Shown here: positions 12,201-36,014 of the stretch, piece after piece
Layout: each line of letters opens with the position of its first letter
Numbering within the stretch: position 1 is the stretch's first letter
Source: Bacteroidota bacterium
Lineage (GTDB): Bacteria > Bacteroidota > Bacteroidia > Bacteroidales > FEN-979
Assembly (NCBI GenBank): GCA_014382125.1
Contig: JACNKI010000130.1
Location: 1-40,000, forward strand
DNA length: 40,000 nt
Direction: 5' to 3'
Program-made: the position numbers and the translations under genes
The notes under the pieces: generated by a model
Databases searched by the model: none
What the model saw: only the letters and a program-made list of their open reading frames with translations
Told to the model about the DNA's origin: nothing

Positions 12201-15200
12201 AGATAGTCCCTATCGTGGATATCCTTCACCTTAACCACTCGAAGGCAAAAGAGTCCCAGGCATTAGACAACAAGCCGATGTTACAGGCACAACTCGGTGC
12301 TTATATGGCCATGGTCAATGATATGGGCATGCTCGTCAACAACGTGCATTTACACACATTCCGTTTTGAAACGAAGAAAGAAACCGGAGAAGGGATCCCT
12401 GTCCAATACCGGTTCAGTCCACTGAAAACGCTTACATCGAAAGAGAAGCTTGAAGCGTTAAAGTCGGCCAGCCAGGTATCGTTCATTTCCGATCTCGGTA
12501 TCACCGAACCGCAGACACCTACCGAAGAGGAGTATTTTGAAGTCGAACGTGTTGCCGATGACAGTTTAAAAGGAATGAAGTTCTCCGATCCAAGGGTTTC
12601 CATTGAACCTGATAAATATTTCGTTGACGATTCCAATATTCCGTCCGTTATCACGAAGATCACAAAGAAGACCGAAGGAAAAGAGGTCACGACATATGTT
12701 CACCTGATGCAAAACCGGGTTGAGCAAAAGATGACATTACCGGACTTTCTTGCACACGGGTTTAACTTCATGGACATCGAATATTTTGAGTATATGTTCA
12801 TCGAATCGGCATTGAAATTCTCCGATGCAGAGAACAGAAGACTTATCTCTTTCACACCACATTTCCCTGCATTGTCTGCTGATATTGCAGATGTATATAA
12901 TATCTCTTTTAAAGAGTTCGCCAATGACATATCATTCTGGAACCAGGATGAGAATAAGTTGCTCAAAGCGAGAAGCCTTGTGACTGAAAGGTTTATCAAC
13001 TCGAAACAGACGAGGGTTGTAAAAAGGTATCTGCCCAGTGTGAACCTCATGGACATCGCCAAAGACGGAACCATCAAAAGCAAATCGAGGAAATTCGATC
13101 ACGTTATGGTCAATGCCATCAGTGAGGATTCAATAAAAGAATTTTTCGATAAGCCGTTTTTAGAAGAACTGTCAAAGATATTCAGTTACGAGTTAACGAT
13201 AAAGGACATCAGGACTCTCGGGTTGAATGTGTTGAGCAATGATTCCCAAGTCGAATATGACTTCAAGGATGCCTCTTTTACTGCTGTCGGACTGTTTGAC
13301 AGGTCAAAACAGCGTAAGATGGCGGAAGAGTACCTTAACCTGGCGGAAGGGCAGACGACAAACGGGTTAAGCGACGAGGCGTTTTTGGATAAAATCTTTG
13401 AAAACGCATTTCTCTCGGAGATAAATCGTGATAAGGCGAAGTCAACAGAAACCAGCCAGCGTAATTGGAGAGAGTTCCTTGTGGAGATGAACAAGCACCG
13501 GTTGCGTACCATGCGAGATGCCAAGATGAGGGGAGATTTAGATACAGAGCTTGTAGAGGCTTCAAGCGGAAGAATGGTACGTGATGGTAAACGGACGACA
13601 AAAACCCTCACAGAGCTTCTTAATATGGCAAAACCGCATGGTTTTACCGTTGACACCACAGCCGTTGAGATATCCGATATCGGGATTGAGAGAAAACGGT
13701 TTGCCGTATCATTTAATCGTGGTTCTGCCGAACCAACGGTAGTCTATTTTGACGGTAAAAAGATCCATGGCGGGGAGAACGATCAGGAGTGGAATGATTA
13801 CAAGCAACAGGTCAAAGATGAATTTGATAATTTAAAAAACATTATCGATGACAAGAACCTTTCATTGAGGCAAAAAAAGATTAAGCTGGAAAACTCCACA
13901 GGATTTCAGTTGATCATGGCAAACAAATCATTTTTCACGGAAAAGGATGAAGAGGGTGGGCTGACAACGAAAGATACGTTCTCTCCTTATATGTATGTCA
14001 ATAAAAAGAATTACCTGAATATCATTTACCGGGGAGATGAGGATACACGGATTAGCCATTATCTCGACCAGATAAAATTCATATTTGATGAATTCGTTGT
14101 AAAAGCGGTACAGGGAGAAACCGGTGGTGATATGTATTACAATCCGTATATCGACTCGAAAACCGTTGACTTCAGCAAGATCGAGGCTGAAGGGATAGAT
14201 TTCTCCAATGTATCGTTATGGTTTTCACCGTCTGATTTCAGGGGGGATGAAGAGGCCGTAAGGACGATCAAGCATGTGGGTACTCCCCTTGGTGACGGGA
14301 CTGAATTTATCCCGTTCTCAAGCGAGATGTCATACACTCCGTTGAGTTTTAGCTTGATAGACGTTGAACAGGCCAAAGGGATCCTTATCGATATTCTCGG
14401 ATCGGAGAACGTAAAGAAACACCTTTACACGAAAAATTTAGATATTAAAAATAACATCCTTCGCAACCAGTATAATAAAAAGGTATTTGGTTTGTTCGAC
14501 AAGGGGATGATCCGTTTTTCAACCTTTGACGGGAAAGTGGAACACCTTACTCCACGCCACGAGGCGATGCACTTTATTACCGGTGTGCTGTTGAGTCCGA
14601 GGGAGAGAGCCAGCCTTCTTAAAGATACAAAGAAGAGGATGGTAAGCGTCAAATACACAAAAGAAGAAGGGGATACCATTTACGAGTATAACCGTGAACA
14701 GGACATAACAGACAGGGATGCTTATGAATATATGGCTGTTATTTTCGAAGACGGATCATATAAGACCACTTTCACTCCGAGAGGGAAAACGCTTCTTCAG
14801 AAATGGCTGCATTTTATCAGGGCCTTTATAGATAAGTACATGAGACATAGAACATCCTTGCTTGGCGTATTATACGCTGCTGACAGGGGGGTATTCGCAA
14901 AAGACAATGCGAGAAACCATGAGGTTGTAAACGATCAGATGTCGAAGGTTGTTGTAAACAAATACAGCAACTCTTCCGCACGGAATATTTCGATATCCAG
15001 GTTCGGCAACGAGACCAACATCAACAGGATCCTTGAAAATGAGGTTATCCCGAAGATATTCAATAACTTCCTTCCAACGGCAAAGACCATGAACCCACGC
15101 ATGGCCGGACGTTCCACATGGGAGGCTATCATCAAAGCTCACAACTACTACCTTAATGCATGGAAGTATTATACTAAAAAGAACGAAGATGGTGAGATCG

Positions 15201-18200
15201 TGAACCCGGTATCATTCACGATGTTGCAGGGTAAAGAAGTGATAGAGGTCGAGGATGTCCCGATGGCGGATGTCACCGTCGAGCAATACCTGGGGGTACA
15301 GCGATATGCCGAACAGAGCAATTCACGCCTTGCTTATACGTTTTTAAAAAGCTATGAAGTGTTTAACCTGGGGAGATACAATCACGGCAAGAGCATGCTT
15401 TATATTTTCGTCCAGAGGGCATTATCGCATTTGAACCTTGAATCCATACTTGCCAATCCAAACCAGGAAGTAGGGAATTTCGCAAACATTATATTCAAAG
15501 ATCCAAGGGAAGAGGGGGCCGATATCAACCCGTTTGATACTATGAACCCGATGCTTACGGCCATGTATTCCGCTATCCCGTTGTACAACCATAGTACAAT
15601 GAAATTCAAGGACAGCAACAATCAGCCGTATGGACATGTCAACCCGAGTCGTCTTCACGCCCTGTTGACATATTCCATGTTCCGCCTGAAATCCGAACAG
15701 ACGAAGTTCAGGACGGATGCATGGATGAATGTCCTTGAAGAGATGCTCAAAGAGATGCCCGACAGCGTTGACAAGAATACGATATTTAGTTTCCTGGTTG
15801 AATTCGGTAACAGGATTGTGGATCCACGGACACAACGGATCAGGTTTACGCATGATTACAATGTGATAGGCCATGTGGATCACCGGAACGATAAAAACAA
15901 AGAAGGCACCGAGAAGCTGATCGGACTCGGGTACATGCAGATAATGAATGATTATTACAAAAAAGGAAGGATACATAAGTTCTTCACCGGTGAGGGAAGT
16001 GTACGCCAGCTTGGATATAAGCTTACGGAAGAGGAATACAGGGATAAGATACGAACATATGAATCACTGATATCCGGATTGAAGTATTATTACCTGACAT
16101 TGTTCAACCGCATGAGTGAAAAGGCTGTTGCCCCGTACAATCTAAGGGATTTCAAGTTACAGCCTGTCACCAACCATGAACGGCTGATGAAGAAGAAAGA
16201 CACCAAATCAGCCGTTATCAACCGGATCAGTTCATATAATGACAGTGGACTGAACAATAAAATCATCAATGCACTTACTGAAGGACATGCGGATCATACG
16301 TATACAGTAACCAAAGACGGTGTATATGATATTGAAGGGACGCTGATGGTCAAGATGCCTCCCCGTAAAACAAAAAAGGATTCCGGCAACGTGAACTTCT
16401 CTTCGATGAAAGAACTGCTTTCGTTTATCGGCATTGACACCGAGATCGATCTGCTTGAAAACATCTATGACCCAAAGAAGGTAAAAGAGGATTTAAGGGT
16501 TCAGCCGGAGAGAACGTATCGTTACCTGGAAGACCATGTTTATGCTTTCATGCTCTCTTTGAAAGTGAACTCATTGATATATCCCGTCATCCAGCAGAAC
16601 GAAGAGAAATTCTTCAATAAAGAGATCAAAGCGAAGGATCTGATAAAATTGTTCGATGAGAAGACCGATGGGATGTATTCGCTTCTGAATAACATCTACA
16701 AGGACTATTACAGCAAGGAGCTTCGTCCGGAAGACCTTTCTAATCTTGATGAAAAGAGCCGTGGTACGCTTATGAACGCACCCACACCGCTTGATTTTTG
16801 GAGAGCAATAGAGTCTATCTCCGAACGTGCCCTGACATTTAATTACCAGTTGAACAACCCGATGTCCATCAATCCGGAAGGAAACCCGTCATACGGATTC
16901 CAGAACGGATCATTTCTGTCTGACCGCCTTCCTATGCCCACCAAAGAAAAACAGAAGTCTTCGGTACTTCTGCGTAAGCTCGTTTTGGATGATGGTGCAT
17001 TCACCGAAGGAAATCCTTTCTATGGCGGGATGACTCCTGATGGAAGAACCCTTTATAATAATCCTATATTATCCGGTAAAATAGAATTTGACCATCTCAA
17101 TTTCATCTCCGGCTTTGAATATGTCGATAGCGGTAGTTTGTTCTGGAAGCTGTCAAAGAAAAATAAGTTCCAGGCAGTGCTGGAATCACTTAAAAAAGCA
17201 TTGCTCGGAGACACGGTATATCAGTATGTTCCCTCTATTATTGATCCATTGGCTGATAAAAGTGCTATGCCGTTCATCCACTGGGGATTCAAAGGTCTTC
17301 GTGGGATGCAGCAGATCGCCAACGTTGAAAAGGGATCATTCAATAATAAGCCTTCATTGAAGTCCGTTGAGGTTAATTATGCTGCCATACTGCCAACTCT
17401 TTATGAGCTAAAGACATATTACGTCAATGTGATGGAACAGAAAAAGGCCAAATGGAATGCCATCACACCGGAGAAATCTGTCCAAAAGACCTCAACAAAA
17501 GGAAGACAAATCTTAAAGGAGCTAAAACGTGGCGGGGAATACATTATCGTAGGCGGAAGGATACACCAGGGCAACGAGATCACCCAGAGAGGAAACCCGT
17601 TGCTGGATTTAACATATGATTCGTTTGATCAGAAGGCATCTAATTATGCCGAATACCTCAAAGATCATGTCACGGATGTCAAAAGGGCGTTCGGAAATCA
17701 CTTCGAATCATTCGGACAGGATCTAAAGGAGTCCGGATATAAGATGTCGAAGGCGGATCTGTATATTTTTGACAAATACCAGATCCAGGGAAAAGACCTT
17801 GGAAGCTGGATTGCGGAAAGAGATAAGATCTATGCGGAGTTCAAAGTCAAGACAGATGAGATACAGGATCGTATCAACAAGGCAAAGAAAGCAAAGAACA
17901 ATGCACTGGTAGACAGGCTCAACCTTGATAAAGAAAAGATCAAGAACCAGCGTGGTGAAGCCGTAAGCAAACCCAACGAGGTTATCAAGCAGTTCCGCAA
18001 AGAGGTTGCGGAAAACAATTATCTCGATGACAAGGGGAACATGAACCCGTTCCTTGAAACCGCTTTTTGGAGCCATTATATCCTTGGGGAATCTCTCGGA
18101 ACGCTAATCCGTGGCTCTTCGTATGAATATGAAGATGTCATAGACTATATCAAGCGTGGTGCAGGGCCTATCGCCCCGGGGAACACGTTCGACATCGACT

Positions 18201-21200
18201 TCCACCGGGACAATAACCTGATGGGAGAAAGCTCACGGGTATATATCACCGAGGACTTGCGTGGCAACAACACTCTGTTTGAACAGCTTCAGAAGAGTGG
18301 TGTCATACGAAAGGATCTGAAGATCACTGACGGAGCATCTATCCTGAACCCGGTATTCCAGCAGATGATGCGGATACAATCGGGGAGTATTATATCTAAT
18401 CTCGGCAACGGGAGCTTTAAGACGATGAACTTTTACACACATCCCGCTACCGGGAAGAAAATATACTTCAAGTTCAACCAGTTTCCTACAAGTGCATCCG
18501 CATTTCAGAATGATCCGTTCTATCACGGCCTGACGAGGTTTATGCTCGGGGATCATCTTTATCACCGGCTGCTTGATAACCTTGGGCGTGGGAAGATGTC
18601 ATGGTATGATGCCATTAACGAGATCATCTATTACCTTGAGGATGAAGGAAAAGAACACCGCCAGGATATGATCGATTACACTGTCTTTGAGAGTGGATCG
18701 AAGTGGGCGATCACCAATATCAACCCGATACGTACAGACGCAAATGGTAACGCTATCTTTAATCCGAAAGACAATAATCCGGATAACACCATTGATGTCA
18801 GCAACCGTACATTGAGGGTACAGGTCATCACCAAACAGGATACCATTGATCCGTATACATCTACTCCCAGGCAGATACTTTATAATATCATAGCCGGTTC
18901 TCATAACATCGAGATCGCTGAAAGCATAAACAGCATCTTTAAAGACTACACGGACAAAGAGAACCGTACCATGGAAAAGGTCGTCAAGAAAGAAACCCAG
19001 ACGAAGTTCATCCGTGGTGCCGTCAAAGACCAGCTTTTCCGTTCGGAAGACCCGATGAAGATGATGGATATGGTGCGTGACCAAAACATCGATCCGTTCG
19101 TTTACAGGGATAAGTCCCACCAGGCTGTAATCAACCGGCTGAACAAGGCTCTCACACCGAGATTGCCTGGTGCTTTCCATGTGCAGGCGTTCTCTATGCC
19201 CAGGATCATCTGGATAGACGGACAGCCGATGCTGAAAGAAGATGTAGATGTCCTTCCTGAAAATTATACAACGGAAAACCTTAAACCCATACAGTACGAA
19301 TATAAAGGGACTCCGATAGAATACTACGAAGACCTTATTGAACATATAAACAGTGATCCTTCAAATGTCGTATACCGTCCCGCCCAGGTCATAGCACCGT
19401 TCAAAGACCGTGAGAAGTTCGGATTATCTGCCGAGACGACACTTCAGCAGGCCATGTCTTACCGCCTTATTGAAACAAATGAAGCGGGAGAAAGTTTCCC
19501 CGGTGAAAAAACAAGCCTTTATGAGCCGACATCGGAGAAGAGAACCGAAGAAGAGCTTGTGAAGCTGTTCATGGAAAATGACATTGATTTTTACAGCGAA
19601 GTAAGCGAAGAGGTAAACCGCAGATACGCTGCATTGAATACCAAGCAACTTACGCAGCTTTCGGGACAGGATTTGGAGATACAGGAAGTCAGCAACATCC
19701 TTACACTGGAAAAGACTTATGTCCCTAAAGTCACCGGTGAGGCGAAGAAGGTGATCATGGCAAAACTCTACGCCAGCTACTTCCGTAATTTCAATGATGC
19801 ACTGGACGTATTCTTTGTAAGGATTCCTACAACGATTGCTTCGATGGGTGCTATGGGGCGTATTGTAGCTTTCGATAACGGAGTGGAGAACACCCTGTAT
19901 ATATCTGCTGAAAAGAACATCCTTGACGGTTCCGATTGGGATGCAGACCAGTTGAACGTGATCTATCGCAGTATCACAGAAAAGGGATATAACACGGATG
20001 CCACATCCAACCGTTTGTTTGAGACCATCAAGAGGTTTTACGATAACCCGTTGAACTATGAATTTATCCTTTCGAGGATTACGGTGGATGAACTCGTTGA
20101 TCTGCGTGATGAATTGTATGAGAACAAAGAGATACGTGAATTCCTTCCGAACAACTTGGGATCGGCTGTACGCATGAGTGATGTAAACACCGATGGAAAG
20201 ATCATGGTGGGCCATTTTGTCAACCTGTCTAACTATTTTTACAAGATGGCTTCGTTACCGCAGAAGATACGCAATGAATTGTTCCCGAACACGATATTTA
20301 CAAATGATGAGAAATTCATGGAGTCAATCCGTGCTATTTCCATCCTTGTCAATGCGGCCACCGATAATGCAAAGCTCGGGGGACTGCTCGGGATGCTGAA
20401 CGTCAACACCCAGACATCACCGCTTATAGCAGGGATCCTGTTCGAAGGCTATAACGAGGCCGATAAGGAAAGGGGATACAAAAACCTTCTTGATAAGATG
20501 GTAAAGATCCTCAATTCGGATCAAGTCCTCAAGGCATCGAACAACTCCCAGAACCATATCACCCAACAGTTCAAAAAGAAGCTGTTCAGGCACCTTCCCA
20601 ATGTAACGAAGAAGAACACTGAAAGGATCGACCAGGAAGATGTATTATTGGCAAACGGACTCTGGGAAGAGGGGATGAAACCTATCGATATCCGTCACCG
20701 CCTTCGCCAGTATACGCATACGGGAGAACAACTTAGAAGGTTCGGTGATGTCGCAACGCTTATCAGTGGGATAAAAGGAAGCCTGTTCGATCTGAACCGT
20801 AAGATAGCCAATGTACAGTATGACATGGGCATCGAACTGACCAACTACCTTTCTCCTATCCTTGCGATGAGGGCAAACAATGAAGATGTAGAGTATGCGG
20901 ATATCAAAGAAGAGTTGCCTGTCCCGGACATGAAAGAGCAAGTGGAGTTCGCAGTCGGACAGCGTGTTGCCAACCTCTATACCGATGAAGACCTTTATGC
21001 CAATGAGGATGTGGAAGAAGATGATGAGATGCTGGCCGATGAGGATGAGGAAACAAAGACAGGGCCGAACCTTATCAACAGGGTGAAGAACCTTGAAGAG
21101 AATGAACGTAAGATCCGTGAGAAGTTCAATATAGCAGAAGTTGTGAAAGAGTTCCCGCACATGATTGCGGAGCTTGAGTCGTTGGTTCGTGTCAAAGAGA

Positions 21201-24200
21201 TGATCAGCTATATCCCCATGGAAGAGATGTACAACCAGACTTTTGATACCGCACTGAAGATGATCCGCAAGGACAGGATATTCGATAAGTCTGCGTACAA
21301 GGCTTTCGAGAGGGGATTCAGTGATTATATTCTGGGGCAGTTCATATCGGATAATTACACCAACGTAGAGTACAACAATAATTTCCTGACAGAGAACGGG
21401 TATACGCAAAATAACTTCGACTTCTCCGAGATTGAAGACCGCACCGTATTTGTTCTCTCCATGCCGTATTATTTGAGAGAACTCAAAGATGTCTATAATG
21501 ACAATAAATTCATCTCTTCATTGAGTGTCGTAAGCCGTAAGTCCGATAATCACCTTATCATAGAACTTACCCATAGCAGACAGGTTCCACCGGAAGTCCT
21601 TTCGGAGATGGAGAGTGACTTTGAGAAACTGCCGGAAGAGATAAAAAGTGTGTTCAGGCTGTATTCCGCATTGGTGTATGGATTTAACAATCCCAACGGG
21701 AGCTTCAGTGCCATCCTCGACTCGGAGATCGAGATCGAGTTCTCGGCATGGATGGAAGATGCTGTCATCGACACCGACCTTGCAGCCAGAGAGATACTGG
21801 TAAAGACACACAAGCTTATTCCTTACGATTTCAGTTACAGGGTTAATGAGTCTGTCATAGGACAATACACCGGTGCTGATCTGGTGAGGCTGAACATGTC
21901 CTATAAAGAGGATCCGATGATCATAGAACAGGATGAATTTGGTGATTACACCAAACCTGTCGTGAGTCCGTACTATATGTGGATGAATTCTTATACCGGC
22001 AAGAATACGCTTACTGATAATATATCTTCGATAAACATGCCTTTTGAAGAAATGCTTCGACTGATGGCAGGAGAAAATGCAGTCATCCCTGTCGGGAGAT
22101 ATTTCATCGAGTTCAAGAATTGGGCAAAGAGAAAATTCAACAAAGACACCACTATCCAGGTTATTCCTACCGGAAGAACCGTCAACGCAAACCTGATAAA
22201 AATCGATGATACAAGGATGGTTTCGTACTCTCCTATGATGCCAAGCGATGTTGTTGAATCACGCATCAATGAACCTAATTACACCAGGCTGACACAGGCG
22301 GTAAAGAGCAGTGATGGATTAGTAACGATAATAGATCACGTACAGAAAGTCTTCCCGAACATTAAATATTCGTTCGTTGATAAGAGTACGGCACTGCACC
22401 CTTCGATGAAATCATATATCCATGGCGGTATCGTTCATTTGAACCTGTCAAAGATAAACCCCCATGATCCGTTCCATGAGGCAACGCATATCTTTTTAGA
22501 GATAGCAAAGAATCTTAATCCGGAGATGTATTCCGGTCTTGTGGATGAGGCATTGGAGATGATAAAATCTGATGATCCTGTCGTACAGGTGGTTAAAAAG
22601 CTGTATTCGGAAAAGAGCAATGAAGACCTTGTTGATGAGGTCATAGCAACCGTTGTCGGATTCAAGAGTGCCGAGAAAGTGATGGCGTTCCTGTCAGGCA
22701 AACCGATGCCGGAACTGGAACAGACATCAAAGACCATCTTTGAACGCATCAGCGATAAAGTGTCGGAGTTCTGGGATATGATACAGAGTTTCGTATTTGA
22801 TCTGTTTAATGTCGATAACTACGCCCTTCGTGTCCCGGCAAACGAATTCTCTGACCTGTCTATCTCTTCCCTTGCAGACATCATCATTAAAAGCTCAACC
22901 AAAGGTGGTATGTTGAGTACCATCACCAGCGACCAGCTTAAAAAGCTGATGCATTCCCGTACGGTGGAGTCACGGTTTGAGAATGGCGGGATCAAAAACG
23001 TCAAAGACTTCTTCGATGCCACTGTCTATGACATGGAGAAAGACGAGCCTCTGCTTGCCAAGATCAACCTTGAGAACGTAAAGAACATCATTCGCAGATA
23101 TGGGAATCTCCCCTCTTTCTATGTGGGATATGAGGTAAACTTCAGTGGGGATCTGAACTCTGTTGAGAACGAGGCCAGGATAAAGGAGTTGATGAAGGTG
23201 CATGACAGGATGGATAACGAGATCGTTCCTGACAGCCGTGACTGGCTTAATGACGGTGCGAGCATCGAAAAGAACATCCGTTACACGCAACGGGAGACAG
23301 GCGAAGAATTCGGTTATTACACTATGGATGTGATGAATAAGCTTAAACGTGCTATCCTTTACACCAAACACACCAAGTTTGCCCGTTACAGCGACCTTGC
23401 CAATATAGAAGGCATGAAGCACCTTTATAACCCGATGTTCAAAGGGTTTGATCCGTTGATCGCTATCGAATACAATAAAGACGGCCAGATAAATCTATCC
23501 ATCTATGATATCACATCGAACACGCTTGAGGGGACAGGGAGCCGTTCTATAAGGGGAAATATGCTAAGACGGTTTTACAGTGATTATCTTGTAAGAAAAA
23601 TAAAACTCTTCAATGATATCACCCTGACCAACAACAATGCCGATACCAGGAGGATGATGGTACAGCTTTTGGCGAATCACCTTCTGGCCGACAGCAGTGT
23701 GAGTATATCTGACATGGCCGTTATCGGGCTGAGGAGAAGCAAGGTCGTGTATAAGAACATCGACCAGTATGAAATGAACAACAACATAAAGGCCATGGGC
23801 AAATACGATGACTTCATGGAGATCCTCTCGAAAGAGATGCAGGAGTTGTTCCAGGAGAAGAACATCCGTTATGCCGATATTGACCTTTGGAGAGAGCTAT
23901 CAGGCTTTTACCAGGCACGGGATATGAAAGACCATGGACTTGAAAAGGTGATCATGGAGAACGGGGAGGAGCCTGTCACAACGGAAGAGAAGAAAGTGAT
24001 CCTTCGCCACCGTCTGTTGTATCTTGAACGGAACCTGAAAAAGAAAAGCGACCTGAATACTGAATATGCCATAGATATCATCCGTGAGATGCGGTTATTG
24101 TATGAGCTGCTGTCATGGTATCACGATATGCCGTTGAACCAGGCACAGATAAACCCTCATACACGTATCAACCAGACGATGTTGTTTATCCATGACGGGA

Positions 24201-26575
24201 ATTCTATTGGCGGAGAGAATGTACAACGTATCAGGAAACTGGTACTGGACGCATCGGGGGATGTAAACAGGGAATTCAATAAGGTTCTCAAGCCGTTGAA
24301 AGAAAAGGGCGGGGGATTTGAATATTTCTATAACACCTTTGGCAATCCTATCAAGGGGAAGGTATCCAATATAGCAGAAGAGATATTTGACAAACTGTTT
24401 GTAAGAGAAACCGATGATAAAGGAAATGACTACCTGACGGGATTCATCTATTGGACTACTGATAAAACAAAAGATGAGGTCAATGCTGACAAGGCCAGGG
24501 AGCTGAACCTTCCGCCTGAAGTGCTGAAGTACGGAGAGATCATCGTGGGGATTATCAACGAAGAACTTGCTAAACTGAAACTCCACCAGAAGGTAATGTC
24601 TCAGCGTGGACTTAAAACCAAAGAGGGTGAAGATTATACCATCGTGAATGCAAGAGAGGAGATACTTGCATCTGGCGGCTATAAGCCGGGAATGGTTCCG
24701 TTGATGACAAAGACCTACTCTGCCAATATAAGCACGGGAGATGTGTTTAAAGGCATGAAGAAACGGCTTTCACGTACTGCTGACGTATTTACGCTGTATG
24801 AGGGACTTGATCCTGAAAATATCAAGGCAAACCAGGATGAGGGTCAAGACCTCAACAGCCTTGGAAATATTTTCTGGTACCAGTTTGGTATCGATGTATC
24901 GAGTGATATCACCGAACTGGGATCCATCACCAGGCTGTCACAATATCTCGGATTAGATGTTGTGGATAGCGGTGTGGATTCAGAGAATGAGCCGTATAAG
25001 TTTGAATTGAAAGACAAATCAAGGAATGATGACCTGTCGAAAGACCTTGAACTGATATTGAATTATTTCGTGATGTCTTCCGTTCGCAACCGTACTTATG
25101 AAGAGAAAGTGATGCCGGTTGTAAATGCTGCTAAGATACTGGCTATCGAGAGGCAAAACAACAGGGACATCGACGAGAAGAACTTTATGACGTTTGCGGA
25201 TCTGTTCATCAAGCAGGCGATAAAGGGAGAGAGAACAAAGCTCGATATGAATATTGCAGGGGTAAACCTCGATAAATCATTGGCTATGGGGATTGAACTG
25301 GCTAACTTCGTTGTATTGCCTTTCAATGTGAATATCGGTGCTATCTCGATGATCGTAAATGCAGTCTATTCCTATACGGAAGGTGTTGTCGGATCATTGA
25401 TGAAGCCTTTATGGAATGAAGAAAGCGTTATGTTTACATCAAAAAATTTATTAGAAGCAACGAGATTGTTTTTTACAGATAAGCATAAGATTACTCAGAT
25501 GATGCACCAATATCAGCTTATCAATCCGAACGATTATGAGCTTACCAACATGCAGTATCATCAGAAAACGAAGAAGTCCATCCTTTCCAGGCATTATATG
25601 AACTGGATGAACTGGGCATCTGACACCTATGCCAGAAGTCTTATAATGACAGCACAGATGTTGCATGACGGAACGTACCATGCGCATAAGTACGATGAAG
25701 AGAGCGGAACCGTTATTTATGATCCGAAAGAGGATAAGCGTCTGGGATGGAACGGGGTGAAGTATTCCGAAGAGGGCCAGGTATTATATGACTTTATGAA
25801 AAAGAGGCTGGTATCTGACGGACTGCAAAAAGCCGATCAGGAACTTACCAGAGGATATCTTGATGAAGAAGCACGAAAGTTTAAGTTCCTGGCCGATAAA
25901 TATGTCATTGGTGCTTACGATAACAAAACACGCAGTTTGTTGAATAATTACCTTATTGGGAAAATGTTCTTTCAGCTTCGCAACTGGACAGTAACCAGGA
26001 TAACAAATGCTATCGAAGAAAAGAAATTTTTAGCCGAAGGCGGAAGATACATTGTAGTCAGAAATAAAGAGGGTGAATTGGTTCCACAGTGGGAGAGGAT
26101 GATGGTGGAAGGATATGTGAATACCATTATAAGGAATATTGTCCTTACCGTTAAAAGCCGTAGCATTAAAAACTGGAAGAACCTGAATTATATGGAGAAA
26201 AGAAATCTCACTAAGGCGGGGGCGAATGTAGCGATGTTTACAGTGATGATGCTGATGTATAATCTGCTTGTGATAGAAGATGAAGATGATCCGGATGAAC
26301 TTGGTGTCATACCTGATTGGAGGATATTAAGGAATATTAAGTATGCAGCGCAGTCGATATTTATATTTCCGATTTTACTTGAGTTTATTTCAAGACCATT
26401 TGCAATGGTAGATATTATTGCAAGTTTATGGATAGGTATATTTGAGAATATTTTTAATGTAAAACTTGAGAACATCGGAAGCACATATCCGGGCAAATCA
26501 CAGATATATACTGTCGGTGAACCGTTCGGATTGAAGAAAAAAGATTTGGATGTAAAAAATATTTGGGAAGAATAG
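6206..26575 (+). CDS. giant polyvalent virion protein containing a crAss-type DPBB RNA polymerase module plus helicase-like and two zincin-like modules (6,789 aa)
   Basis: There is no stop codon for 20,370 nt. The track start at 6206 is GTG, and the ATG at 6209 is the more likely start. The internal motifs are listed as separate features below. Confidence 0.95.
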   Translation: MMPEEPIIPPKDRSKGIDFLGMLLNKKNLADIEMEHQQTGFPLNIYTRDELIDRYPQIKDDQQRQNDLLQYQDSWLKMYNAKGFKPFETKSLTIPDTKFNRARYGPKATYYNPNTAEFAIPEPEFGYYWPKSSEKHGATGLPFLATDIGDHFATSKGYYIDREGKKQPLELAGNADEHLKRVMSDDGMKYYWQEAQPGEIIPGDQIRQIIDRDMSSESIWGTMARGAWSGFIPLLYKGVGTAVSNFFTWSDKAMRLDLDYYNPDTWYNRFGVDAINDANWMSPQNEDERRGAFESWSSGLFNLMNGTTQMFGMMATGGLIGGLARGIGFGATAGMRIGMNASFGVGGAEAGSGIKEELERLGYSKNDIEMILPLFINATILSERVLSANIVQRFGVNAMMGSFGTKASRMKAGQLYTNVFDETLKNANTYFPRFSETMKGRVIQKAFTRLSQARKYTRDLAGTNKFFRVGFAGIEEGFEEGIEGKFYDVINMFYNGYNKNVANEFIEEYDKYIYTDPVGLNRPGQNVVSGDYFVKTRKDNPNDWSLVSKDQYREDTDRRAFSDKILSGEALLTGGNTAEEMAMAALSTWLAVGMIGGGNQKHVQTTVIDFAYQSVKNPGMKDQLRETYREMEKDNEDALGVFKTADGGVTDNVDESKRMTRVDLIIQEVEFWENIIKKYGLDSKEARLAYNSNMKLGAEAARAAGKIEKVQAAIVSVSNNEPLEEDVDTGIKAGMKEDQLKDLVKTHQKQLDDIVTPKPGEFNGKPGKYSIRYTDQWNTIELFDHFIDRQAENAAIANTSKEAIIHEIRSGKRARGIKLGITKAFGIDSKMHKIVEDEYQKEIQRKKAEYKKNYLTDRKKMNEMMSKWFIATNELPGINSIIQDYKNNENAILHDLGIKMDDIVQQYNAEIKEAIPDEEISGIMSGIETQLDAVSETLDNIAQLRQKGEAGAEETFTEGLNSFREGFSSLLYDINTVMERVGKTSAEALTDESNAAYNLFARRSADVLSRLQGELKADYDKSKADLTGMNIDLEMNYDMISGIIASAEKMDRSAPIEDFSQFAEGERLKRLVKAFNQMFNEAIIRTPDGVFTIGDLYSKHKIFADEKNEQDVDNPDTVLKDINVMLQYLERLERWVDVNYPLFQQKVERNDDTYEHSPIVHTPNQRLMEGDREAILESFKTIKNTLNKVQRAAQNAQASMDKENFRQRIQQTDLKIGILNDIHQFNIPHETDKDTPSLNELDGILSAIWAKLEEAGYKGDDRKFLEGLWRDFVDGKVDVQQVQNLMNEIDALVVEAIDSLSGKLDWLVKDIGVMIGLLTEQNLKEKGVINYTYSVLNDFNDNVALKPATESVRIEGGSTRHGYESGRISFQQGGSQGNYSDEYLFHLATNVHRWNEYGRNRKPKYSSIYIAIKDYIAEKEEMFKNGKRTFAPTIDQENVLLHAIGFYFSPANPLVTGGTSVIGENIQKILNSILVRGYGGTGKSTQLFTDMIGVLSNLMKRPLKIGVVVSTYDLANGYLKQKEIANDKLENGEFDIIYTDEMLDKDLNNQYDLLWVDEVSLHGEQQTIDLGEKLNTINTATQLPVFFVGDDTQVVKQEAKGDYDALWYNYSSERTSPLNIVHRTGKKVFHAFQNKLRSQKSSTSNAKIEIDNYGYSVDEDGGKHGVESFLTINDVLDSFLLRITNDNQEIDPGIGPEEVVLIVRDQEAELMFREYFISKGYEIPQRLIKHLYPQGIKQDREKLVSGLSAENVFFAYNFDSATSDFEYQTNLFKIRNILTGTTRQVEYVAIVHDTVQDKVDHIGEYKYNRENVQGFFKDFRERLDAVLSKFKEDGGVVTPPTPPGTEKHANTYEAADPEDVRSETKKQNTRLKRQQISESFTHISDLINEKLKIGADPGAKARGLFYHNLMKYHLNPSEPLFDELVKNAQAMVGDDKINEPEAFVRSFLNAIELRDDVREFLHDINTVISPVIKTEKGNNKVQANPFAIKFVGYTKKEGEIVPIVDILHLNHSKAKESQALDNKPMLQAQLGAYMAMVNDMGMLVNNVHLHTFRFETKKETGEGIPVQYRFSPLKTLTSKEKLEALKSASQVSFISDLGITEPQTPTEEEYFEVERVADDSLKGMKFSDPRVSIEPDKYFVDDSNIPSVITKITKKTEGKEVTTYVHLMQNRVEQKMTLPDFLAHGFNFMDIEYFEYMFIESALKFSDAENRRLISFTPHFPALSADIADVYNISFKEFANDISFWNQDENKLLKARSLVTERFINSKQTRVVKRYLPSVNLMDIAKDGTIKSKSRKFDHVMVNAISEDSIKEFFDKPFLEELSKIFSYELTIKDIRTLGLNVLSNDSQVEYDFKDASFTAVGLFDRSKQRKMAEEYLNLAEGQTTNGLSDEAFLDKIFENAFLSEINRDKAKSTETSQRNWREFLVEMNKHRLRTMRDAKMRGDLDTELVEASSGRMVRDGKRTTKTLTELLNMAKPHGFTVDTTAVEISDIGIERKRFAVSFNRGSAEPTVVYFDGKKIHGGENDQEWNDYKQQVKDEFDNLKNIIDDKNLSLRQKKIKLENSTGFQLIMANKSFFTEKDEEGGLTTKDTFSPYMYVNKKNYLNIIYRGDEDTRISHYLDQIKFIFDEFVVKAVQGETGGDMYYNPYIDSKTVDFSKIEAEGIDFSNVSLWFSPSDFRGDEEAVRTIKHVGTPLGDGTEFIPFSSEMSYTPLSFSLIDVEQAKGILIDILGSENVKKHLYTKNLDIKNNILRNQYNKKVFGLFDKGMIRFSTFDGKVEHLTPRHEAMHFITGVLLSPRERASLLKDTKKRMVSVKYTKEEGDTIYEYNREQDITDRDAYEYMAVIFEDGSYKTTFTPRGKTLLQKWLHFIRAFIDKYMRHRTSLLGVLYAADRGVFAKDNARNHEVVNDQMSKVVVNKYSNSSARNISISRFGNETNINRILENEVIPKIFNNFLPTAKTMNPRMAGRSTWEAIIKAHNYYLNAWKYYTKKNEDGEIVNPVSFTMLQGKEVIEVEDVPMADVTVEQYLGVQRYAEQSNSRLAYTFLKSYEVFNLGRYNHGKSMLYIFVQRALSHLNLESILANPNQEVGNFANIIFKDPREEGADINPFDTMNPMLTAMYSAIPLYNHSTMKFKDSNNQPYGHVNPSRLHALLTYSMFRLKSEQTKFRTDAWMNVLEEMLKEMPDSVDKNTIFSFLVEFGNRIVDPRTQRIRFTHDYNVIGHVDHRNDKNKEGTEKLIGLGYMQIMNDYYKKGRIHKFFTGEGSVRQLGYKLTEEEYRDKIRTYESLISGLKYYYLTLFNRMSEKAVAPYNLRDFKLQPVTNHERLMKKKDTKSAVINRISSYNDSGLNNKIINALTEGHADHTYTVTKDGVYDIEGTLMVKMPPRKTKKDSGNVNFSSMKELLSFIGIDTEIDLLENIYDPKKVKEDLRVQPERTYRYLEDHVYAFMLSLKVNSLIYPVIQQNEEKFFNKEIKAKDLIKLFDEKTDGMYSLLNNIYKDYYSKELRPEDLSNLDEKSRGTLMNAPTPLDFWRAIESISERALTFNYQLNNPMSINPEGNPSYGFQNGSFLSDRLPMPTKEKQKSSVLLRKLVLDDGAFTEGNPFYGGMTPDGRTLYNNPILSGKIEFDHLNFISGFEYVDSGSLFWKLSKKNKFQAVLESLKKALLGDTVYQYVPSIIDPLADKSAMPFIHWGFKGLRGMQQIANVEKGSFNNKPSLKSVEVNYAAILPTLYELKTYYVNVMEQKKAKWNAITPEKSVQKTSTKGRQILKELKRGGEYIIVGGRIHQGNEITQRGNPLLDLTYDSFDQKASNYAEYLKDHVTDVKRAFGNHFESFGQDLKESGYKMSKADLYIFDKYQIQGKDLGSWIAERDKIYAEFKVKTDEIQDRINKAKKAKNNALVDRLNLDKEKIKNQRGEAVSKPNEVIKQFRKEVAENNYLDDKGNMNPFLETAFWSHYILGESLGTLIRGSSYEYEDVIDYIKRGAGPIAPGNTFDIDFHRDNNLMGESSRVYITEDLRGNNTLFEQLQKSGVIRKDLKITDGASILNPVFQQMMRIQSGSIISNLGNGSFKTMNFYTHPATGKKIYFKFNQFPTSASAFQNDPFYHGLTRFMLGDHLYHRLLDNLGRGKMSWYDAINEIIYYLEDEGKEHRQDMIDYTVFESGSKWAITNINPIRTDANGNAIFNPKDNNPDNTIDVSNRTLRVQVITKQDTIDPYTSTPRQILYNIIAGSHNIEIAESINSIFKDYTDKENRTMEKVVKKETQTKFIRGAVKDQLFRSEDPMKMMDMVRDQNIDPFVYRDKSHQAVINRLNKALTPRLPGAFHVQAFSMPRIIWIDGQPMLKEDVDVLPENYTTENLKPIQYEYKGTPIEYYEDLIEHINSDPSNVVYRPAQVIAPFKDREKFGLSAETTLQQAMSYRLIETNEAGESFPGEKTSLYEPTSEKRTEEELVKLFMENDIDFYSEVSEEVNRRYAALNTKQLTQLSGQDLEIQEVSNILTLEKTYVPKVTGEAKKVIMAKLYASYFRNFNDALDVFFVRIPTTIASMGAMGRIVAFDNGVENTLYISAEKNILDGSDWDADQLNVIYRSITEKGYNTDATSNRLFETIKRFYDNPLNYEFILSRITVDELVDLRDELYENKEIREFLPNNLGSAVRMSDVNTDGKIMVGHFVNLSNYFYKMASLPQKIRNELFPNTIFTNDEKFMESIRAISILVNAATDNAKLGGLLGMLNVNTQTSPLIAGILFEGYNEADKERGYKNLLDKMVKILNSDQVLKASNNSQNHITQQFKKKLFRHLPNVTKKNTERIDQEDVLLANGLWEEGMKPIDIRHRLRQYTHTGEQLRRFGDVATLISGIKGSLFDLNRKIANVQYDMGIELTNYLSPILAMRANNEDVEYADIKEELPVPDMKEQVEFAVGQRVANLYTDEDLYANEDVEEDDEMLADEDEETKTGPNLINRVKNLEENERKIREKFNIAEVVKEFPHMIAELESLVRVKEMISYIPMEEMYNQTFDTALKMIRKDRIFDKSAYKAFERGFSDYILGQFISDNYTNVEYNNNFLTENGYTQNNFDFSEIEDRTVFVLSMPYYLRELKDVYNDNKFISSLSVVSRKSDNHLIIELTHSRQVPPEVLSEMESDFEKLPEEIKSVFRLYSALVYGFNNPNGSFSAILDSEIEIEFSAWMEDAVIDTDLAAREILVKTHKLIPYDFSYRVNESVIGQYTGADLVRLNMSYKEDPMIIEQDEFGDYTKPVVSPYYMWMNSYTGKNTLTDNISSINMPFEEMLRLMAGENAVIPVGRYFIEFKNWAKRKFNKDTTIQVIPTGRTVNANLIKIDDTRMVSYSPMMPSDVVESRINEPNYTRLTQAVKSSDGLVTIIDHVQKVFPNIKYSFVDKSTALHPSMKSYIHGGIVHLNLSKINPHDPFHEATHIFLEIAKNLNPEMYSGLVDEALEMIKSDDPVVQVVKKLYSEKSNEDLVDEVIATVVGFKSAEKVMAFLSGKPMPELEQTSKTIFERISDKVSEFWDMIQSFVFDLFNVDNYALRVPANEFSDLSISSLADIIIKSSTKGGMLSTITSDQLKKLMHSRTVESRFENGGIKNVKDFFDATVYDMEKDEPLLAKINLENVKNIIRRYGNLPSFYVGYEVNFSGDLNSVENEARIKELMKVHDRMDNEIVPDSRDWLNDGASIEKNIRYTQRETGEEFGYYTMDVMNKLKRAILYTKHTKFARYSDLANIEGMKHLYNPMFKGFDPLIAIEYNKDGQINLSIYDITSNTLEGTGSRSIRGNMLRRFYSDYLVRKIKLFNDITLTNNNADTRRMMVQLLANHLLADSSVSISDMAVIGLRRSKVVYKNIDQYEMNNNIKAMGKYDDFMEILSKEMQELFQEKNIRYADIDLWRELSGFYQARDMKDHGLEKVIMENGEEPVTTEEKKVILRHRLLYLERNLKKKSDLNTEYAIDIIREMRLLYELLSWYHDMPLNQAQINPHTRINQTMLFIHDGNSIGGENVQRIRKLVLDASGDVNREFNKVLKPLKEKGGGFEYFYNTFGNPIKGKVSNIAEEIFDKLFVRETDDKGNDYLTGFIYWTTDKTKDEVNADKARELNLPPEVLKYGEIIVGIINEELAKLKLHQKVMSQRGLKTKEGEDYTIVNAREEILASGGYKPGMVPLMTKTYSANISTGDVFKGMKKRLSRTADVFTLYEGLDPENIKANQDEGQDLNSLGNIFWYQFGIDVSSDITELGSITRLSQYLGLDVVDSGVDSENEPYKFELKDKSRNDDLSKDLELILNYFVMSSVRNRTYEEKVMPVVNAAKILAIERQNNRDIDEKNFMTFADLFIKQAIKGERTKLDMNIAGVNLDKSLAMGIELANFVVLPFNVNIGAISMIVNAVYSYTEGVVGSLMKPLWNEESVMFTSKNLLEATRLFFTDKHKITQMMHQYQLINPNDYELTNMQYHQKTKKSILSRHYMNWMNWASDTYARSLIMTAQMLHDGTYHAHKYDEESGTVIYDPKEDKRLGWNGVKYSEEGQVLYDFMKKRLVSDGLQKADQELTRGYLDEEARKFKFLADKYVIGAYDNKTRSLLNNYLIGKMFFQLRNWTVTRITNAIEEKKFLAEGGRYIVVRNKEGELVPQWERMMVEGYVNTIIRNIVLTVKSRSIKNWKNLNYMEKRNLTKAGANVAMFTVMMLMYNLLVIEDEDDPDELGVIPDWRILRNIKYAAQSIFIFPILLEFISRPFAMVDIIASLWIGIFENIFNVKLENIGSTYPGKSQIYTVGEPFGLKKKDLDVKNIWEE
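7091..7268 (+). other. Gly-rich hydrophobic (membrane-insertion-like) segment of giant protein
   Basis: The segment starting at residue 296 reads WSSGLFNLMNGTTQMFGMMATGGLIGGLARGIGFGATAGMRIGMNASFGVGGAEAGSGI. It has GxxxG-type packing and almost no charged residues. Confidence 0.5.
10496..11585 (+). other. SF1 (RecD/TraA/AAA_30-like) helicase/ATPase module of giant protein
   Basis: The motifs appear in canonical order. Q-motif-like APTIDQENVLLHAI. Walker A GYGGTGKST (10634-10660, residues 1477-1485). Walker B DLLWVDEVS (10859-10885). Motif III FFVGDDTQ (10961-10984). Then NIVHRTGKK, and a motif VI-like TGTTRQVEYVAIV. Confidence 0.65.
11912..12315 (+). other. possible degenerate PD-(D/E)xK (RecB/Cas4-like) nuclease motif set following the helicase module
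   Basis: GLFYHNLMKY resembles the GxxxH motif, EIVPIVDILHL supplies the motif II Asp, and QAQLGAYMAMV matches QxxxY. The expected (D/E)xK position reads LNHSK, so the match is imperfect. Confidence 0.25.
14489..14755 (+). other. zincin-like metallopeptidase module 1 (HEAMH) of giant protein
   Basis: The sequence reads GLFDKGMIRFSTFDGKVEHLTPRHEAMHFITGVL. The HExxH motif lies at 14558-14572 (residues 2785-2789). A downstream acidic helix, AYEYMAVIFEDG, is a candidate third ligand. Confidence 0.5.
19808..19969 (+). other. DPBB RNA polymerase catalytic loop (DxDxD) of giant protein
   Basis: VFFVRIPTTIASMGAMGRIVAFDNGVENTLYISAEKNILDGSDWDADQLNVIYR parallels bacterial beta-prime VLLNRAPTLHRLGIQAF...NADFDGDQMAVH. 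The Asp triad lies at 19934-19948 (residues 4577, 4579, 4581). Confidence 0.8.
22415..22663 (+). other. zincin-like metallopeptidase module 2 (HEATH) of giant protein
   Basis: The sequence reads YIHGGIVHLNLSKINPHDPFHEATHIFLEIAKNLNPEMY. The HExxH motif lies at 22475-22489 (residues 5424-5428). The downstream LVDEVIATVVGF is analogous to the corresponding helix in module 1. Confidence 0.55.
25280..26455 (+). other. C-terminal cluster of transmembrane-like helices of giant protein
   Basis: Three hydrophobic stretches are present: LAMGIELANFVVLPFNVNIGAISMIVNAVYSY, AGANVAMFTVMMLMYNLLVI (followed by EDEDDPDE), and AAQSIFIFPILLEFISRPFAMVDIIASLWIGIF. Confidence 0.5.
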
Positions 26576-29878: not shown

Positions 29879-30595
29879 TCACCCTTCATATATCAATATA
29901 TCAGGGGCAATTCCTCTGATCTTTTCGATCTCTATATCAATTTTGGTATCCCGGTAATCCATCCTTATCTCTTTGGCCTCAACGCTTGCCAACAGGCAAT
30001 CCATTTCATGGTCACGGGGATTGATGTGGATTTCAACTTCAAATTTCTTCTTCTCTCCGCCTTTGAAGATCGGCATATGCAGAACAAACGCCTTGGGGAT
30101 ATTGCTCTCTACGATCTGGTTCATCAGGTCACGCTTGTTTCCGACATCATCAGATTTGGATTCCATGTCTTTGTTTACTTTTCCTTTAAAGGCACGGAGT
30201 TCCGCAACGAGCTTCATGGCTATCGTACTATCTTCGAAGCACCAGCGATGCATTTTGATAAAATCAGAAAGCTCTCTCGGGTTCCTTTCAGTGGGTGTGT
30301 TGATACCGAAGGCAACGAAGTCTTCATGTAGTTCCATTGCACCGACAACATTCCCGGCATAGTAACTTGTCTCATTAAATTCAAGATCGATCCTCATCTT
30401 GTCTGACAGCCTGCTGATCTCTATATTTGCAGATAACTGGTCAATAGTTGCGATTCTCTTTTCGAGAAATCTCGATACCGTATCAATATTGCCATTGATT
30501 TGAAGCTTTTCCGGTTCACGGAGTTCTAATGCTTGTCCTTGTCTGATCTCTAAGGTTTCTGTACCTTCTTTTACTGTTACATTTAATTCTTCCAT
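29879..30595 (-). CDS. hypothetical protein (238 aa), last gene of - strand operon
   Basis: The ORF has an ATG start and is followed 20 nt later by the terminator. No motif was recognised. Confidence 0.8.
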   Translation of the reverse strand: MEELNVTVKEGTETLEIRQGQALELREPEKLQINGNIDTVSRFLEKRIATIDQLSANIEISRLSDKMRIDLEFNETSYYAGNVVGAMELHEDFVAFGINTPTERNPRELSDFIKMHRWCFEDSTIAMKLVAELRAFKGKVNKDMESKSDDVGNKRDLMNQIVESNIPKAFVLHMPIFKGGEKKKFEVEIHINPRDHEMDCLLASVEAKEIRMDYRDTKIDIEIEKIRGIAPDILIYEG

Positions 30596-30613
30596 TTGTA
30601 ATGGTTTTTATGA

Positions 30614-30805
30614 TTAATGATTTGATTTTATTTCTTTACCTTTTATATCAAAAAAGATCTTTAATCCGAATATTCTATAATATAATCCTTCCTGATATTT
30701 ATTACAATTTTTACAAAAACGTACAGTAGCGGTTAGTATTCTTGTATCGCTTCTGTAATTAACCCATCCGTAAGTGAATTCATGTTTATGAAACATTTTT
30801 CTCAT
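30614..30805 (-). CDS. hypothetical small protein with single CxxC (63 aa)
   Basis: The ATG at 30805 sits in an ATGA overlap with the upstream mini-gene stop. The protein contains RFCKNCNKY. Confidence 0.55.
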   Translation of the reverse strand: MRKMFHKHEFTYGWVNYRSDTRILTATVRFCKNCNKYQEGLYYRIFGLKIFFDIKGKEIKSNH

Positions 30806-30951
30806 ACAAATTTATTTTTACAATTTGAACATTCGTATACTTCTATCCATGTGGTGTTGATTAATTCGGAATGTGAATAAGCTACAAATCCGGCACCGCA
30901 TTTTGGACAGTTATGAAATATTTGTTTAAGATATTTTATAAATTTTCTCAT
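30802..30951 (-). CDS. zinc-ribbon mini-protein (49 aa, not in ORF track)
   Basis: Manual translation gives MRKFIKYLKQIFHNCPKCGAGFVAYSHSELINTTWIEVYECSNCKNKFV, with CPKC and CSNC pairs. ATGA overlaps occur at both ends (30948-30951 and 30802-30805). Confidence 0.65.
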   Translation of the reverse strand: MRKFIKYLKQIFHNCPKCGAGFVAYSHSELINTTWIEVYECSNCKNKFV

Positions 30952-32196: not shown

Positions 32197-32229
32197 GATC
32201 TGGAAATTTATCTTAAATATATTCCGAGT

Positions 32230-32667: not shown

Positions 32668-32920
32668 AATGTTTTCGTTTTGATATGATGGTTGCTTTTG
32701 TTGCAAATTTAATTTTCTTATCGTATTCTTCTTCACTTAAAACAGCCGGAACCCACTGGTCTAAACTACGAGAATAGTAGAATAAGTTATAGTCTTTATC
32801 GGATCCCAGATCGTTTGGATGTGGTTTTATATTACTTGCATAAACACCTAATTCTGTTATACACCATATTTCTCTGTTGGGGATCTCTCTTATCGGAATA
32901 TTTTCAGGTTTCTTATCCAT
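32642..32920 (-). CDS. hypothetical protein (92 aa)
   Basis: The ORF has an ATG start and a Lys-rich C-terminus. It is packed within the operon. Confidence 0.6.
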   Translation of the reverse strand: MDKKPENIPIREIPNREIWCITELGVYASNIKPHPNDLGSDKDYNLFYYSRSLDQWVPAVLSEEEYDKKIKFATKATIISKRKHYAKKNKKK

Positions 32921-34360: not shown

Positions 34361-34361
34361 A

Positions 34362-34990: not shown

Positions 34991-35015
34991 TTTTGTTAAT
35001 ATAGTGCCATATAAC

Positions 35016-35065: not shown

Positions 35066-35095
35066 AACCTGTCCTAAGGGGTATCGTAAATATGG

Positions 35096-35992: not shown

Positions 35993-36014
35993 AATGATTG
36001 TTTTATTTTAATTG

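Follow-up and report, generated by a model that had tools for sequence, protein, structure and literature searches.

A predicted crAss-type two-barrel RNA polymerase core within a 6,789-residue fused protein on a Bacteroidota-associated contig

The closest described relatives of the system considered here are the RNA polymerases (RNAPs) carried in the virions of crAss-like phages. The enzyme of phage phi14:2, gp66 (6VR4), is a single chain with two double-psi beta-barrels (DPBBs), which is found in the virion, is Mg2+- and Asp-dependent, is resistant to rifampicin and transcribes the early genes. In the literature the domain order is given as a duplex-binding helix, DPBB-B, a connector and DPBB-A. 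The landmarks of gp66 are the connector at residues 1095-1238, the motif DFDID at 1361-1365, the bridge helix at 1529-1559 and the trigger loop at 1598-1636 (bioRxiv 10.1101/2020.03.07.982082). Each change of a DFDID Asp to Ala abolishes RNA synthesis. In vitro, the enzyme works preferentially on single-stranded or denatured DNA; in the crystal it adopts a self-inhibited conformation, for which DFDID was proposed as the basis. For crAss001, gp47, gp49 and gp50 were described as capsid cargo, and it was proposed that they are extruded in a partly unfolded state and regain their fold in the cell. Crass transcription blocks fused into a 'huge polyprotein' have also been reported (bioRxiv 10.1101/2020.03.07.982082, citing earlier comparative genomics), and enzyme class, virion role and fused architecture are already published. 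Here, a stretch of 40,000 nucleotides (contig JACNKI010000130.1, positions 1 to 40,000; the window) was analyzed, in which a giant open reading frame (ORF) contains a D-x-D-x-D loop at 19808-19969. The original prediction, made by eye from the sequence, had taken this loop for the catalytic centre of an injected RNAP. The sequence comparisons and the structural model described below support the assignment of residues 4535-4588 as the predicted catalytic strands and Mg2+-binding loop of a beta-prime-like DPBB in a crAss-type single-chain polymerase.

The ORF that contains the loop is the following:

6206..26575, + strand: giant ORF, 6789 aa from GTG 6206; the likely true start is ATG 6209, which gives 6788 aa

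The ATG start is used by public gene calls (6788 aa), and residue numbers elsewhere are therefore lower by one. The preceding ORF of 754 aa has its stop at 6201-6203, just before GTG 6206. In three independent assemblies of the European Nucleotide Archive, gene calling gave the identical giant gene with 6788 aa, and a further, shortened call of 4286 aa comes from a reversed fragment of an 18,117-nt Logan contig. An assembly chimera as the origin of the ORF was rejected, since the same gene is found in three independent assemblies and dozens of homologues are equally long.

Translation of 19808-19969 on the + strand gave VFFVRIPTTIASMGAMGRIVAFDNGVENTLYISAEKNILDGSDWDADQLNVIYR, 54 residues corresponding to aa 4535-4588, which is exactly the reading of the original prediction when counted from GTG 6206. 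The E. coli beta-prime layout to which the segment had been compared also agrees with PDB chains: the E. coli comparison sequence matched beta-prime chains at residues 421-806, and residues 421-469 read VLLNRAPTLH...NADFDGDQMAVH. The giant protein consists of 7% Asp, and one DxDxD is present, where 2.3 are expected per composition-preserving shuffle; DxDxD alone is therefore not significant, and 89% of the shuffled proteins contained at least one. The joint pattern of R-x-P-[TSN], 30-45 residues and D-x-D-x-D was found in 0.9% of 5000 shuffles. On its own DxDxD is weak evidence, and the call made by eye was a reasonable lead and no proof.

To find homologues, aa 3801-5000 were used as query in an exhaustive HMMER search of 1.84 billion cluster representatives (clusters at 50% identity). 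This identified 79 relatives, 45 of them at E<1e-30, and many are 5,900-7,400 aa long and match at the equivalent relative position. A word-indexed protein search returned no matches with the segment alone and one marginal match with the alignment (P0080), an index that evidently fails to surface these giant proteins, and a pattern scan of IMG/VR yielded no confirmed relative. In the profile alignment of the relatives, counting sequences that cover the column, D4577, D4579 and D4581 are invariant (79/79), as is P4541 (79/79), and R4539 is kept in 78/79. An alignment of aa 3861-4940 of the window protein with 17 diverse relatives (MAFFT; A1), which are 18-33% identical to the window segment, has 22 invariant columns, including K3983, R3984, G4043, K4166, G4322, Q4327, R4539, P4541, N4562, the Asp triad, G4664, N4721 and G4729.

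Within the motif, position 2 is mostly Y or F. Position 4 is I in 45 relatives, G in 16 and A in 7, the window protein having A, and because of this variation the family bridges the cellular DFDGD and the crAss DFDID forms. A distant subgroup of ∼6,000-aa proteins with one of 2,299 aa (P0065-P0079, the short one being P0079) has GGDFDGDQ or GGDNDGDQ at the equivalent of 19934-19951. These proteins carry the cellular-type G at position 4, where close relatives mostly have Ile and the window protein has Ala. The variation at this position may bear on the self-inhibited conformation described for gp66 DFDID.

For comparison with the characterized polymerases, phi14:2 gp65, gp66 and gp67 and crAss001 gp44-gp50 were taken from GenBank records. 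The catalytic segments read YRIPNQ...(39)...GSDFDIDK in gp66, YRVPTE...GSDFDVDK in gp50 and VRIPTT...(38)...GSDWDADQ in the window protein. When A1 was aligned with gp66 aa 781-1801 using hhalign, a probability of 98.96 and an E value of 8e-18 were obtained over 704 collinear columns covering gp66 872-1758, which take in both barrels, the DxDxD loop, the bridge helix and the trigger loop. In local hmmsearch runs, family profiles matched gp66 with 45.8-48.3 bits (E 2.4e-11 to 4.4e-12 at a PDB-size search space) and crAss001 gp50 with 54.7-66.7 bits (E 4.9e-14 to 1.2e-17 on the same scale); the A1 profile itself gave 45.8 bits and E 2.4e-11 for gp66, and 66.7 bits and E 1.2e-17 for gp50. The match to gp66 consists of two collinear pieces (profile 68-508 to gp66 797-1254 and profile 698-1007 to gp66 1314-1791), that to gp50 of three. 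Reversed gp66 and gp50 and 50 shuffles of each (71 reported) scored at most 1.7 bits.

These alignments, together with the structural model described below, divide the polymerase core into the following parts:

18089..20740, + strand: two-barrel RNAP core, aa ∼3962-4845, homologous to gp66 aa ∼872-1790 (hhalign, hmmsearch, AlphaFold2/Foldseek)
18149..18181, + strand: IKRGAGPIAPG, aa 3982-3992, where a helix meets the first (beta-like) barrel; K3983 and R3984 invariant
18320..18352, + strand: KITDGASILNP, aa 4039-4049; G4043 invariant, T4041, D4042, N4048 and P4049 nearly so
18692..18709, + strand: SGSKWA, aa 4163-4168, in the first-barrel region; K4166 invariant
18869..19153, + strand: helical connector, aa ∼4222-4316, AlphaFold2 helices at model positions 362-456, equivalent to gp66 connector 1095-1238
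19808..19969, + strand: predicted catalytic strands and loop of the beta-prime-like DPBB-A, aa 4535-4588, aligned to gp66 1314-1376
19934..19948, + strand: Asp triad D4577-W-D4579-A-D4581, predicted Mg2+ site, 79/79, aligned to gp66 1361-DFDID-1365
20153..20245, + strand: bridge-helix equivalent, aa 4650-4680, with GKIMVGHFVN; G4664 invariant
20321..20437, + strand: trigger-loop equivalent, aa ∼4706-4744, with NAATDNAK; N4721 and G4729 invariant

The order is thus beta-like barrel, helical connector, catalytic barrel, bridge helix and trigger loop. Residues 4650-4680 align residue for residue with the gp66 bridge helix 1529-1559 (GKSGVGITAN), sharing GxxxVGxxAN, and residues ∼4706-4744 align with the gp66 trigger loop 1598-1636 (NAFVDNAKD), sharing NAxxDNAK. 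In the upstream barrel, IKRGAGPIAPG aligns with gp66 FFKRVP 891-896 and gp50 DFQKRYKEVHAP, KITDGASILNP with gp66 QTDAQAWITP 960-969, and SGSKWA with gp66 GVKVGA 1063-1068 and gp50 FESTTKVG. The first two of these motifs had been pointed out as possible parts of the second DPBB, about 650 residues upstream of the catalytic segment. Their conservation and their position in the second-barrel region, on the side upstream of the gp66 connector, are supported by the alignments, while the distance had to be corrected to 595 and 538 residues. Residues of these motifs may face the Asp triad.

A structure of aa 3861-4940 was predicted with AlphaFold2 using A1 as alignment and no templates. The model has a mean predicted local distance difference test score (pLDDT) of 73.5 and a predicted template modelling score of 0.73. 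Locally, pLDDT reaches 79-89 in the catalytic strands (model 674-727) and lies mostly at 70-90 in the strand-rich region upstream. The strands of the catalytic barrel are predicted at model positions 674-679, 688-696, 703-706 and 722-727, and helices are present in the bridge-helix and trigger-loop region. Upstream, KR ends a helix and TDGASIL runs into a strand and then a helix, with more strands up to ∼aa 4220; the strand at model 184-187 (aa 4044-4047) lies in the first barrel over the centre of KITDGASILNP. At the level of secondary structure, the two-barrel order is supported by clusters of strands on either side of the helical block at model 362-456.

When the model was compared with the PDB using Foldseek, the first match was 6vr4_A, i.e., gp66, with E 3.9e-15 over 1131 columns. 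It was followed by five entries of QDE-1 (E 1.5e-4 to 4.7e-3) and by RDR2 (E 0.056), and the tail of the list consists of local matches of 58-138 columns to Rpb1, beta-prime and the polymerase subunits of African swine fever virus and AR9. Against BFVD, 37 matches at E<=1e-3 were obtained, and those with a named source mostly derive from fragments of giant proteins of uncultured crAss-like phages and of phi14:2 itself; one source, cr118_1, is classified in the Crassvirales, family Suoliviridae. The catalytic-centre identity proposed by the original prediction is thus upheld by the triad (79/79), by the hhalign match to gp66 and by a model whose best match in the PDB is this two-barrel polymerase. 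Neither of the two outcomes that would have spoken against it, a missing barrel fold or a triad that varies among homologues, was observed.

Compared with gp66, the window polymerase shares the single chain with two DPBBs, the order of the core, the sequence G-S-D-x-D-x-D and an R-I-P 38-39 residues upstream of it. They differ in that gp66 is a separate protein of 2,180 aa encoded between separate gp65 and gp67, whereas here one ORF of 6,789 aa is found, and in the motif itself, which is DFDID in gp66 and DWDAD here. Upstream of the core there is no alignment with gp66, so that a counterpart of the gp66 cleft-blocking domain (aa 196-233) was not identified. In crAss001, gp50 is the strongest sequence match to the core, gp49 corresponds to the C-terminus of the giant protein and gp47 weakly to a HEAMH region further upstream, and the transcription genes likewise adjoin the muzzle and cargo genes. 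However, crAss001 has three separate genes on two strands without BLAST-level similarity to the giant ORF, and the giant protein has ∼2,700 extra N-terminal residues, including a P-loop module. Giant proteins of uncultured Crassvirales such as cr118_1 and cr50_1 also carry the polymerase and its partners in one chain, and among viral structures their chunks in BFVD match the fold best (E 2e-15 to 7e-15), but their identity to the window protein in structural alignment is 10-12%.

The more distant two-barrel enzymes resemble the window polymerase at the level of the fold. QDE-1 and RDR2, the second-best PDB matches, have a single-chain two-barrel fold, a connector and a D-Y/F-D-G-D loop; they differ in being eukaryotic and RNA-dependent, with a global template modelling (TM) score of ∼0.2, an rmsd (root-mean-square deviation) of 28 Å and no match at the sequence level or to the Pfam RNA-dependent RNA polymerase family. 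The window polymerase is therefore related to the QDE-1/RDR family in fold, not a member of it. Beta-prime and Rpb1 share the hydrophobic strand, R-x-P-T, a spacing of 35-38 residues and D-x-D-x-D-Q, as well as short fold matches, but have NADFDGD where the window polymerase has GSDWDAD, and the latter has both barrels on one chain. No Pfam Rpb1/RpoC domain was found in the catalytic segment even at E<=10, and the fold matches are local (E 0.5-2), so that the resemblance is one of barrels and not of family membership. In concept, the window protein is also comparable to P23-45 gp96 and the N4 virion RNAP, which are virion-carried polymerases fused to large proteins and injected for (pre-)early genes. 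In P23-45 gp96, a strongly reduced two-barrel enzyme is joined to a tape measure, and the N4 enzyme has an unrelated T7-like fold. A gp96 structure was not among the 50 Foldseek PDB matches listed, and the non-virion RNAP chains of the related phage P32/P74 appeared only at E >1.

Outside the polymerase core, the giant ORF encodes further modules:

10634..10657, + strand: Walker A motif GYGGTGKS, aa 1477-1484, P-loop of a superfamily 1 (SF1)-helicase-like module, aa ∼1477-1650
14558..14572, + strand: HEAMH, zincin-like HExxH, aa 2785-2789; both His and the Glu invariant (36/36)
22475..22489, + strand: HEATH, second HExxH, aa 5424-5428, downstream of the polymerase; kept in 37-38/38 members
24956..26572, + strand: C-terminal module, aa ∼6251-6789; its homologues are phi14:2 gp65 and crAss001 gp49, virion proteins associated with RNAP

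Tiles of the family profile over the C-terminal ∼540 residues matched the C-terminal part of gp65 with up to 50.7 bits and gp49 with 31-34 bits. At its end, the aligned part of this module has a hydrophobic stretch and then an acidic run. The two HExxH motifs flank the polymerase core, one on each side. The tile around HEAMH weakly matches crAss001 gp47 aa 2152-2295, which has HEAFH at 2157 (21 bits, independent E 8e-4). For phi14:2 gp65, which has HEIMH at 245, a zincin-like protease domain was reported. The HExxH modules may be zincin-like proteases that act in polyprotein processing or in attack on the cell wall. By its profile matches, the giant ORF follows the order of the three genes of the crAss transcription block (gp67/47, gp66/50, gp65/49), here fused into one chain; the gp65/gp49-like C-terminal module is well supported, and the single 21-bit match points weakly to a gp67/gp47-like N-terminal part.

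The P-loop module has a Walker-B-like LLWVDEVS ∼70 residues (∼200 nt) downstream of Walker A, at aa ∼1553. Its match to Pfam AAA_30 (E 9.2e-5, 22.7 bits) is under the 27-bit cut-off, and by sequence this part is shared by only ∼5/79 relatives. Several of the BFVD matches are chunks of crAss giants named 'DNA helicase' in UniProt, and these names suggest a helicase module in the same chain of the crAss giants. A tblastn search with aa 1-3000 of the giant ORF gave no match.

Upstream of the giant ORF and on the same strand, a second gene with a relative in the Crassvirales was identified:

60..1583, + strand: 507-aa ORF related to the Crassvirus tail muzzle protein (PF25731 crAss_MUZ, E 2.3e-12, 46.3 bits, cut-off 27)

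This ORF matches only the last ∼230 of the 1224 positions of the muzzle model, and it may represent a far shorter version of the muzzle protein, or the two may have just the C-terminal domain in common. Its only match in the phage database is the unannotated human faecal contig MT835470 (20.6% identity). The Crassvirales signature genes in the window are confined to this muzzle-like domain and the transcription block, and no Crassvirales record showed similarity, either in nucleotide comparisons or for proteins at the BLAST level.

On the opposite strand, a block of small genes is present downstream of the giant ORF:

29879..37659, - strand: small genes, including those of DUF2303-like, DUF5131-like and DUF3871-like proteins

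The DUF2303-like protein (PHROG 11501) is 42% identical to that of Bacteroides phage BS-TP2 and is also found in LoVEphage, Cellulophaga phi39:1 and Flavobacterium phage 1/32. Proteins of the block resemble those of Bacteroides, Phocaeicola, Cellulophaga and Flavobacterium phages, and on a related contig the block adjoins a DnaB helicase gene. It looks like a replication and early module, and its relatives suggest a host among the Bacteroidota.

Several observations weigh against a crAss-type virion polymerase. The identity to gp66 is ∼12-17%, and the Foldseek match to 6vr4_A has a global TM score, query-normalized, of 0.48 and an rmsd of 8.7 Å; because of these values, the domain arrangement may differ from that of gp66. 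DWDAD differs at position 4 (A) from both cellular RNAPs (G) and crAss phages (I), and the W at position 2 is found in the window protein only among the 79 relatives. When the giant ORF was searched in four pieces against Pfam and PHROGs, the polymerase region had no match and the sub-threshold AAA_30 match was the only one in the whole ORF, and with the catalytic segment, those of two relatives and that of gp66 itself nothing relevant was found in Pfam at E<=10; the Pfam result is uninformative, because even the catalytic segment of the experimentally proven polymerase gp66 lacks a Pfam model. For aa 3801-5000, neither phmmer against PDB sequences nor tblastn against 50,697 phage records gave a match; these negatives, like that of PHROGs, were judged uninformative too. 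A search of the PDB library with the A1 profile at default filters returned no matches, although 6vr4_A is present in that library; this is uninformative as well, because the default bias filter of HMMER discards gp66, which is recovered at 45.8 bits (E 2.4e-11) with --nobias or --max. Since the filter removes a match of this kind, routine profile annotation likely misses the enzyme class. The window contains no capsid, portal or terminase gene, so that the evidence for virion association consists of synteny and homology. Finally, the Bacteroidota promoter consensus TTTG-N17-21-TAnnTTTG had zero matches where 1.1 were expected, and a repeat search of 26500-40000 for a shared upstream motif gave only short repeats at the level of chance. 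The gp66-dependent early transcripts were reported without a common upstream motif, and the promoter result agrees with this report but proves nothing.

In view of the chance level of DxDxD in this protein, and of the missing matches in Pfam, PHROGs, PDB sequences and phage BLAST, the loop could be a fortuitous motif in a giant structural or tail protein unrelated to polymerases. This is refuted by the conservation of the triad and of R-x-P in the 79 homologues, by collinear gp66 and gp50 profile matches extending over ∼700-900 residues with shuffled controls near zero (at most 1.7 bits) and by a predicted fold that best matches 6VR4, and its probability is close to negligible. A different question is whether a functional enzyme has to be assumed. 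The same fold occurs in the RNA-dependent QDE-1 and RDR2, gp66 itself prefers single-stranded or denatured DNA in vitro and crystallized in a self-inhibited form, and the DWDAD variant is unusual, so the fold might be degenerate or repurposed, either as an ejected scaffold or ejectosome or as an RNA-dependent or primer-making enzyme like QDE-1. However, the triad, R4539, P4541 and the bridge-helix and trigger-loop motifs are strictly kept across a family with 18-33% identity, and such invariance argues that catalysis has probably been retained; moreover, the nearest characterized relative is a DNA-dependent early transcriptase. We therefore regard this possibility as very improbable, if less so than a fortuitous motif.

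Slightly more room, though still little, is left for a genuine two-barrel RNAP that is not packaged and that acts in the cell in middle or late transcription, like P23-45 gp64 or the AR9 enzyme. Phages with two-barrel non-virion RNAPs exist, and the gene lies in an apparently late block on the structural strand, a position that tells the timing and not the destination of the product. Against this, the closest relatives by both sequence and fold are virion polymerases of crAss-like phages, the polymerase shares its chain with a module that has gp65 and gp49, both virion cargo proteins, as homologues, and its gene follows a tail muzzle homologue, as in crAss001. In addition, a polymerase made only with the late genes cannot start an infection unless it is carried in. 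Taken as a whole, a crAss-type two-barrel polymerase within a fused chain of ∼770 kDa, with a life history transferred by homology, is very probably the best explanation.

For this crAss-type polymerase, we infer packaging, injection, processing, template and early-gene targets from homology, gene order and the published work on phi14:2 and crAss001. The giant protein would be made late and packaged as cargo in the capsid. On infection, it would pass through the tail in a partly unfolded state, enter a Bacteroidota host and refold there, possibly after cleavage by its own HExxH modules. The three Asp residues would hold Mg2+, and RNA would be made from the incoming phage DNA independently of the host RNAP, starting the early programme. 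The replication-type block on the - strand would be a plausible target of the polymerase.

What is new compared with the published systems is a large and very divergent lineage of 79 clusters at 50% identity, which by sequence appears separate and undescribed. With it, the crAss-type virion RNAP would be extended to proteins that were missed by Pfam, PHROGs, phage BLAST (∼50,000 genomes) and default-filter HMMER searches against the PDB, and a predicted function is assigned to the largest gene of these contigs, which is useful for their annotation. The alignment of the 79 clusters fixes the invariant active-site residues as K3983, R3984, K4166, R4539, P4541, N4562, the triad, N4721 and G4729, and the variation at position 4 spans the gap between the cellular and the crAss motif. 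The fully fused form of 6,789 aa is a natural test case for whether one working chain is used or whether it is processed by its own HExxH modules. It is conceivable, though rather unlikely, that the 79-cluster family marks an undescribed lineage of Bacteroidota phages outside the recognized families of the Crassvirales in which ejection and transcription depend on an uncut chain of ∼770 kDa. If so, this chain, with its P-loop helicase-like module, two metalloprotease-like modules, polymerase and gp65-like membrane-proximal module, would thread the tail and couple DNA entry to transcription.

The ORF at 26634-27740, downstream of the giant ORF, encodes a 368-aa protein. Short direct repeats rich in GAT (TGTGATGATGAT-like) were observed within it at 27497-27731, and they translate into a Cys/Asp-rich repeat close to the C-terminus of the protein.

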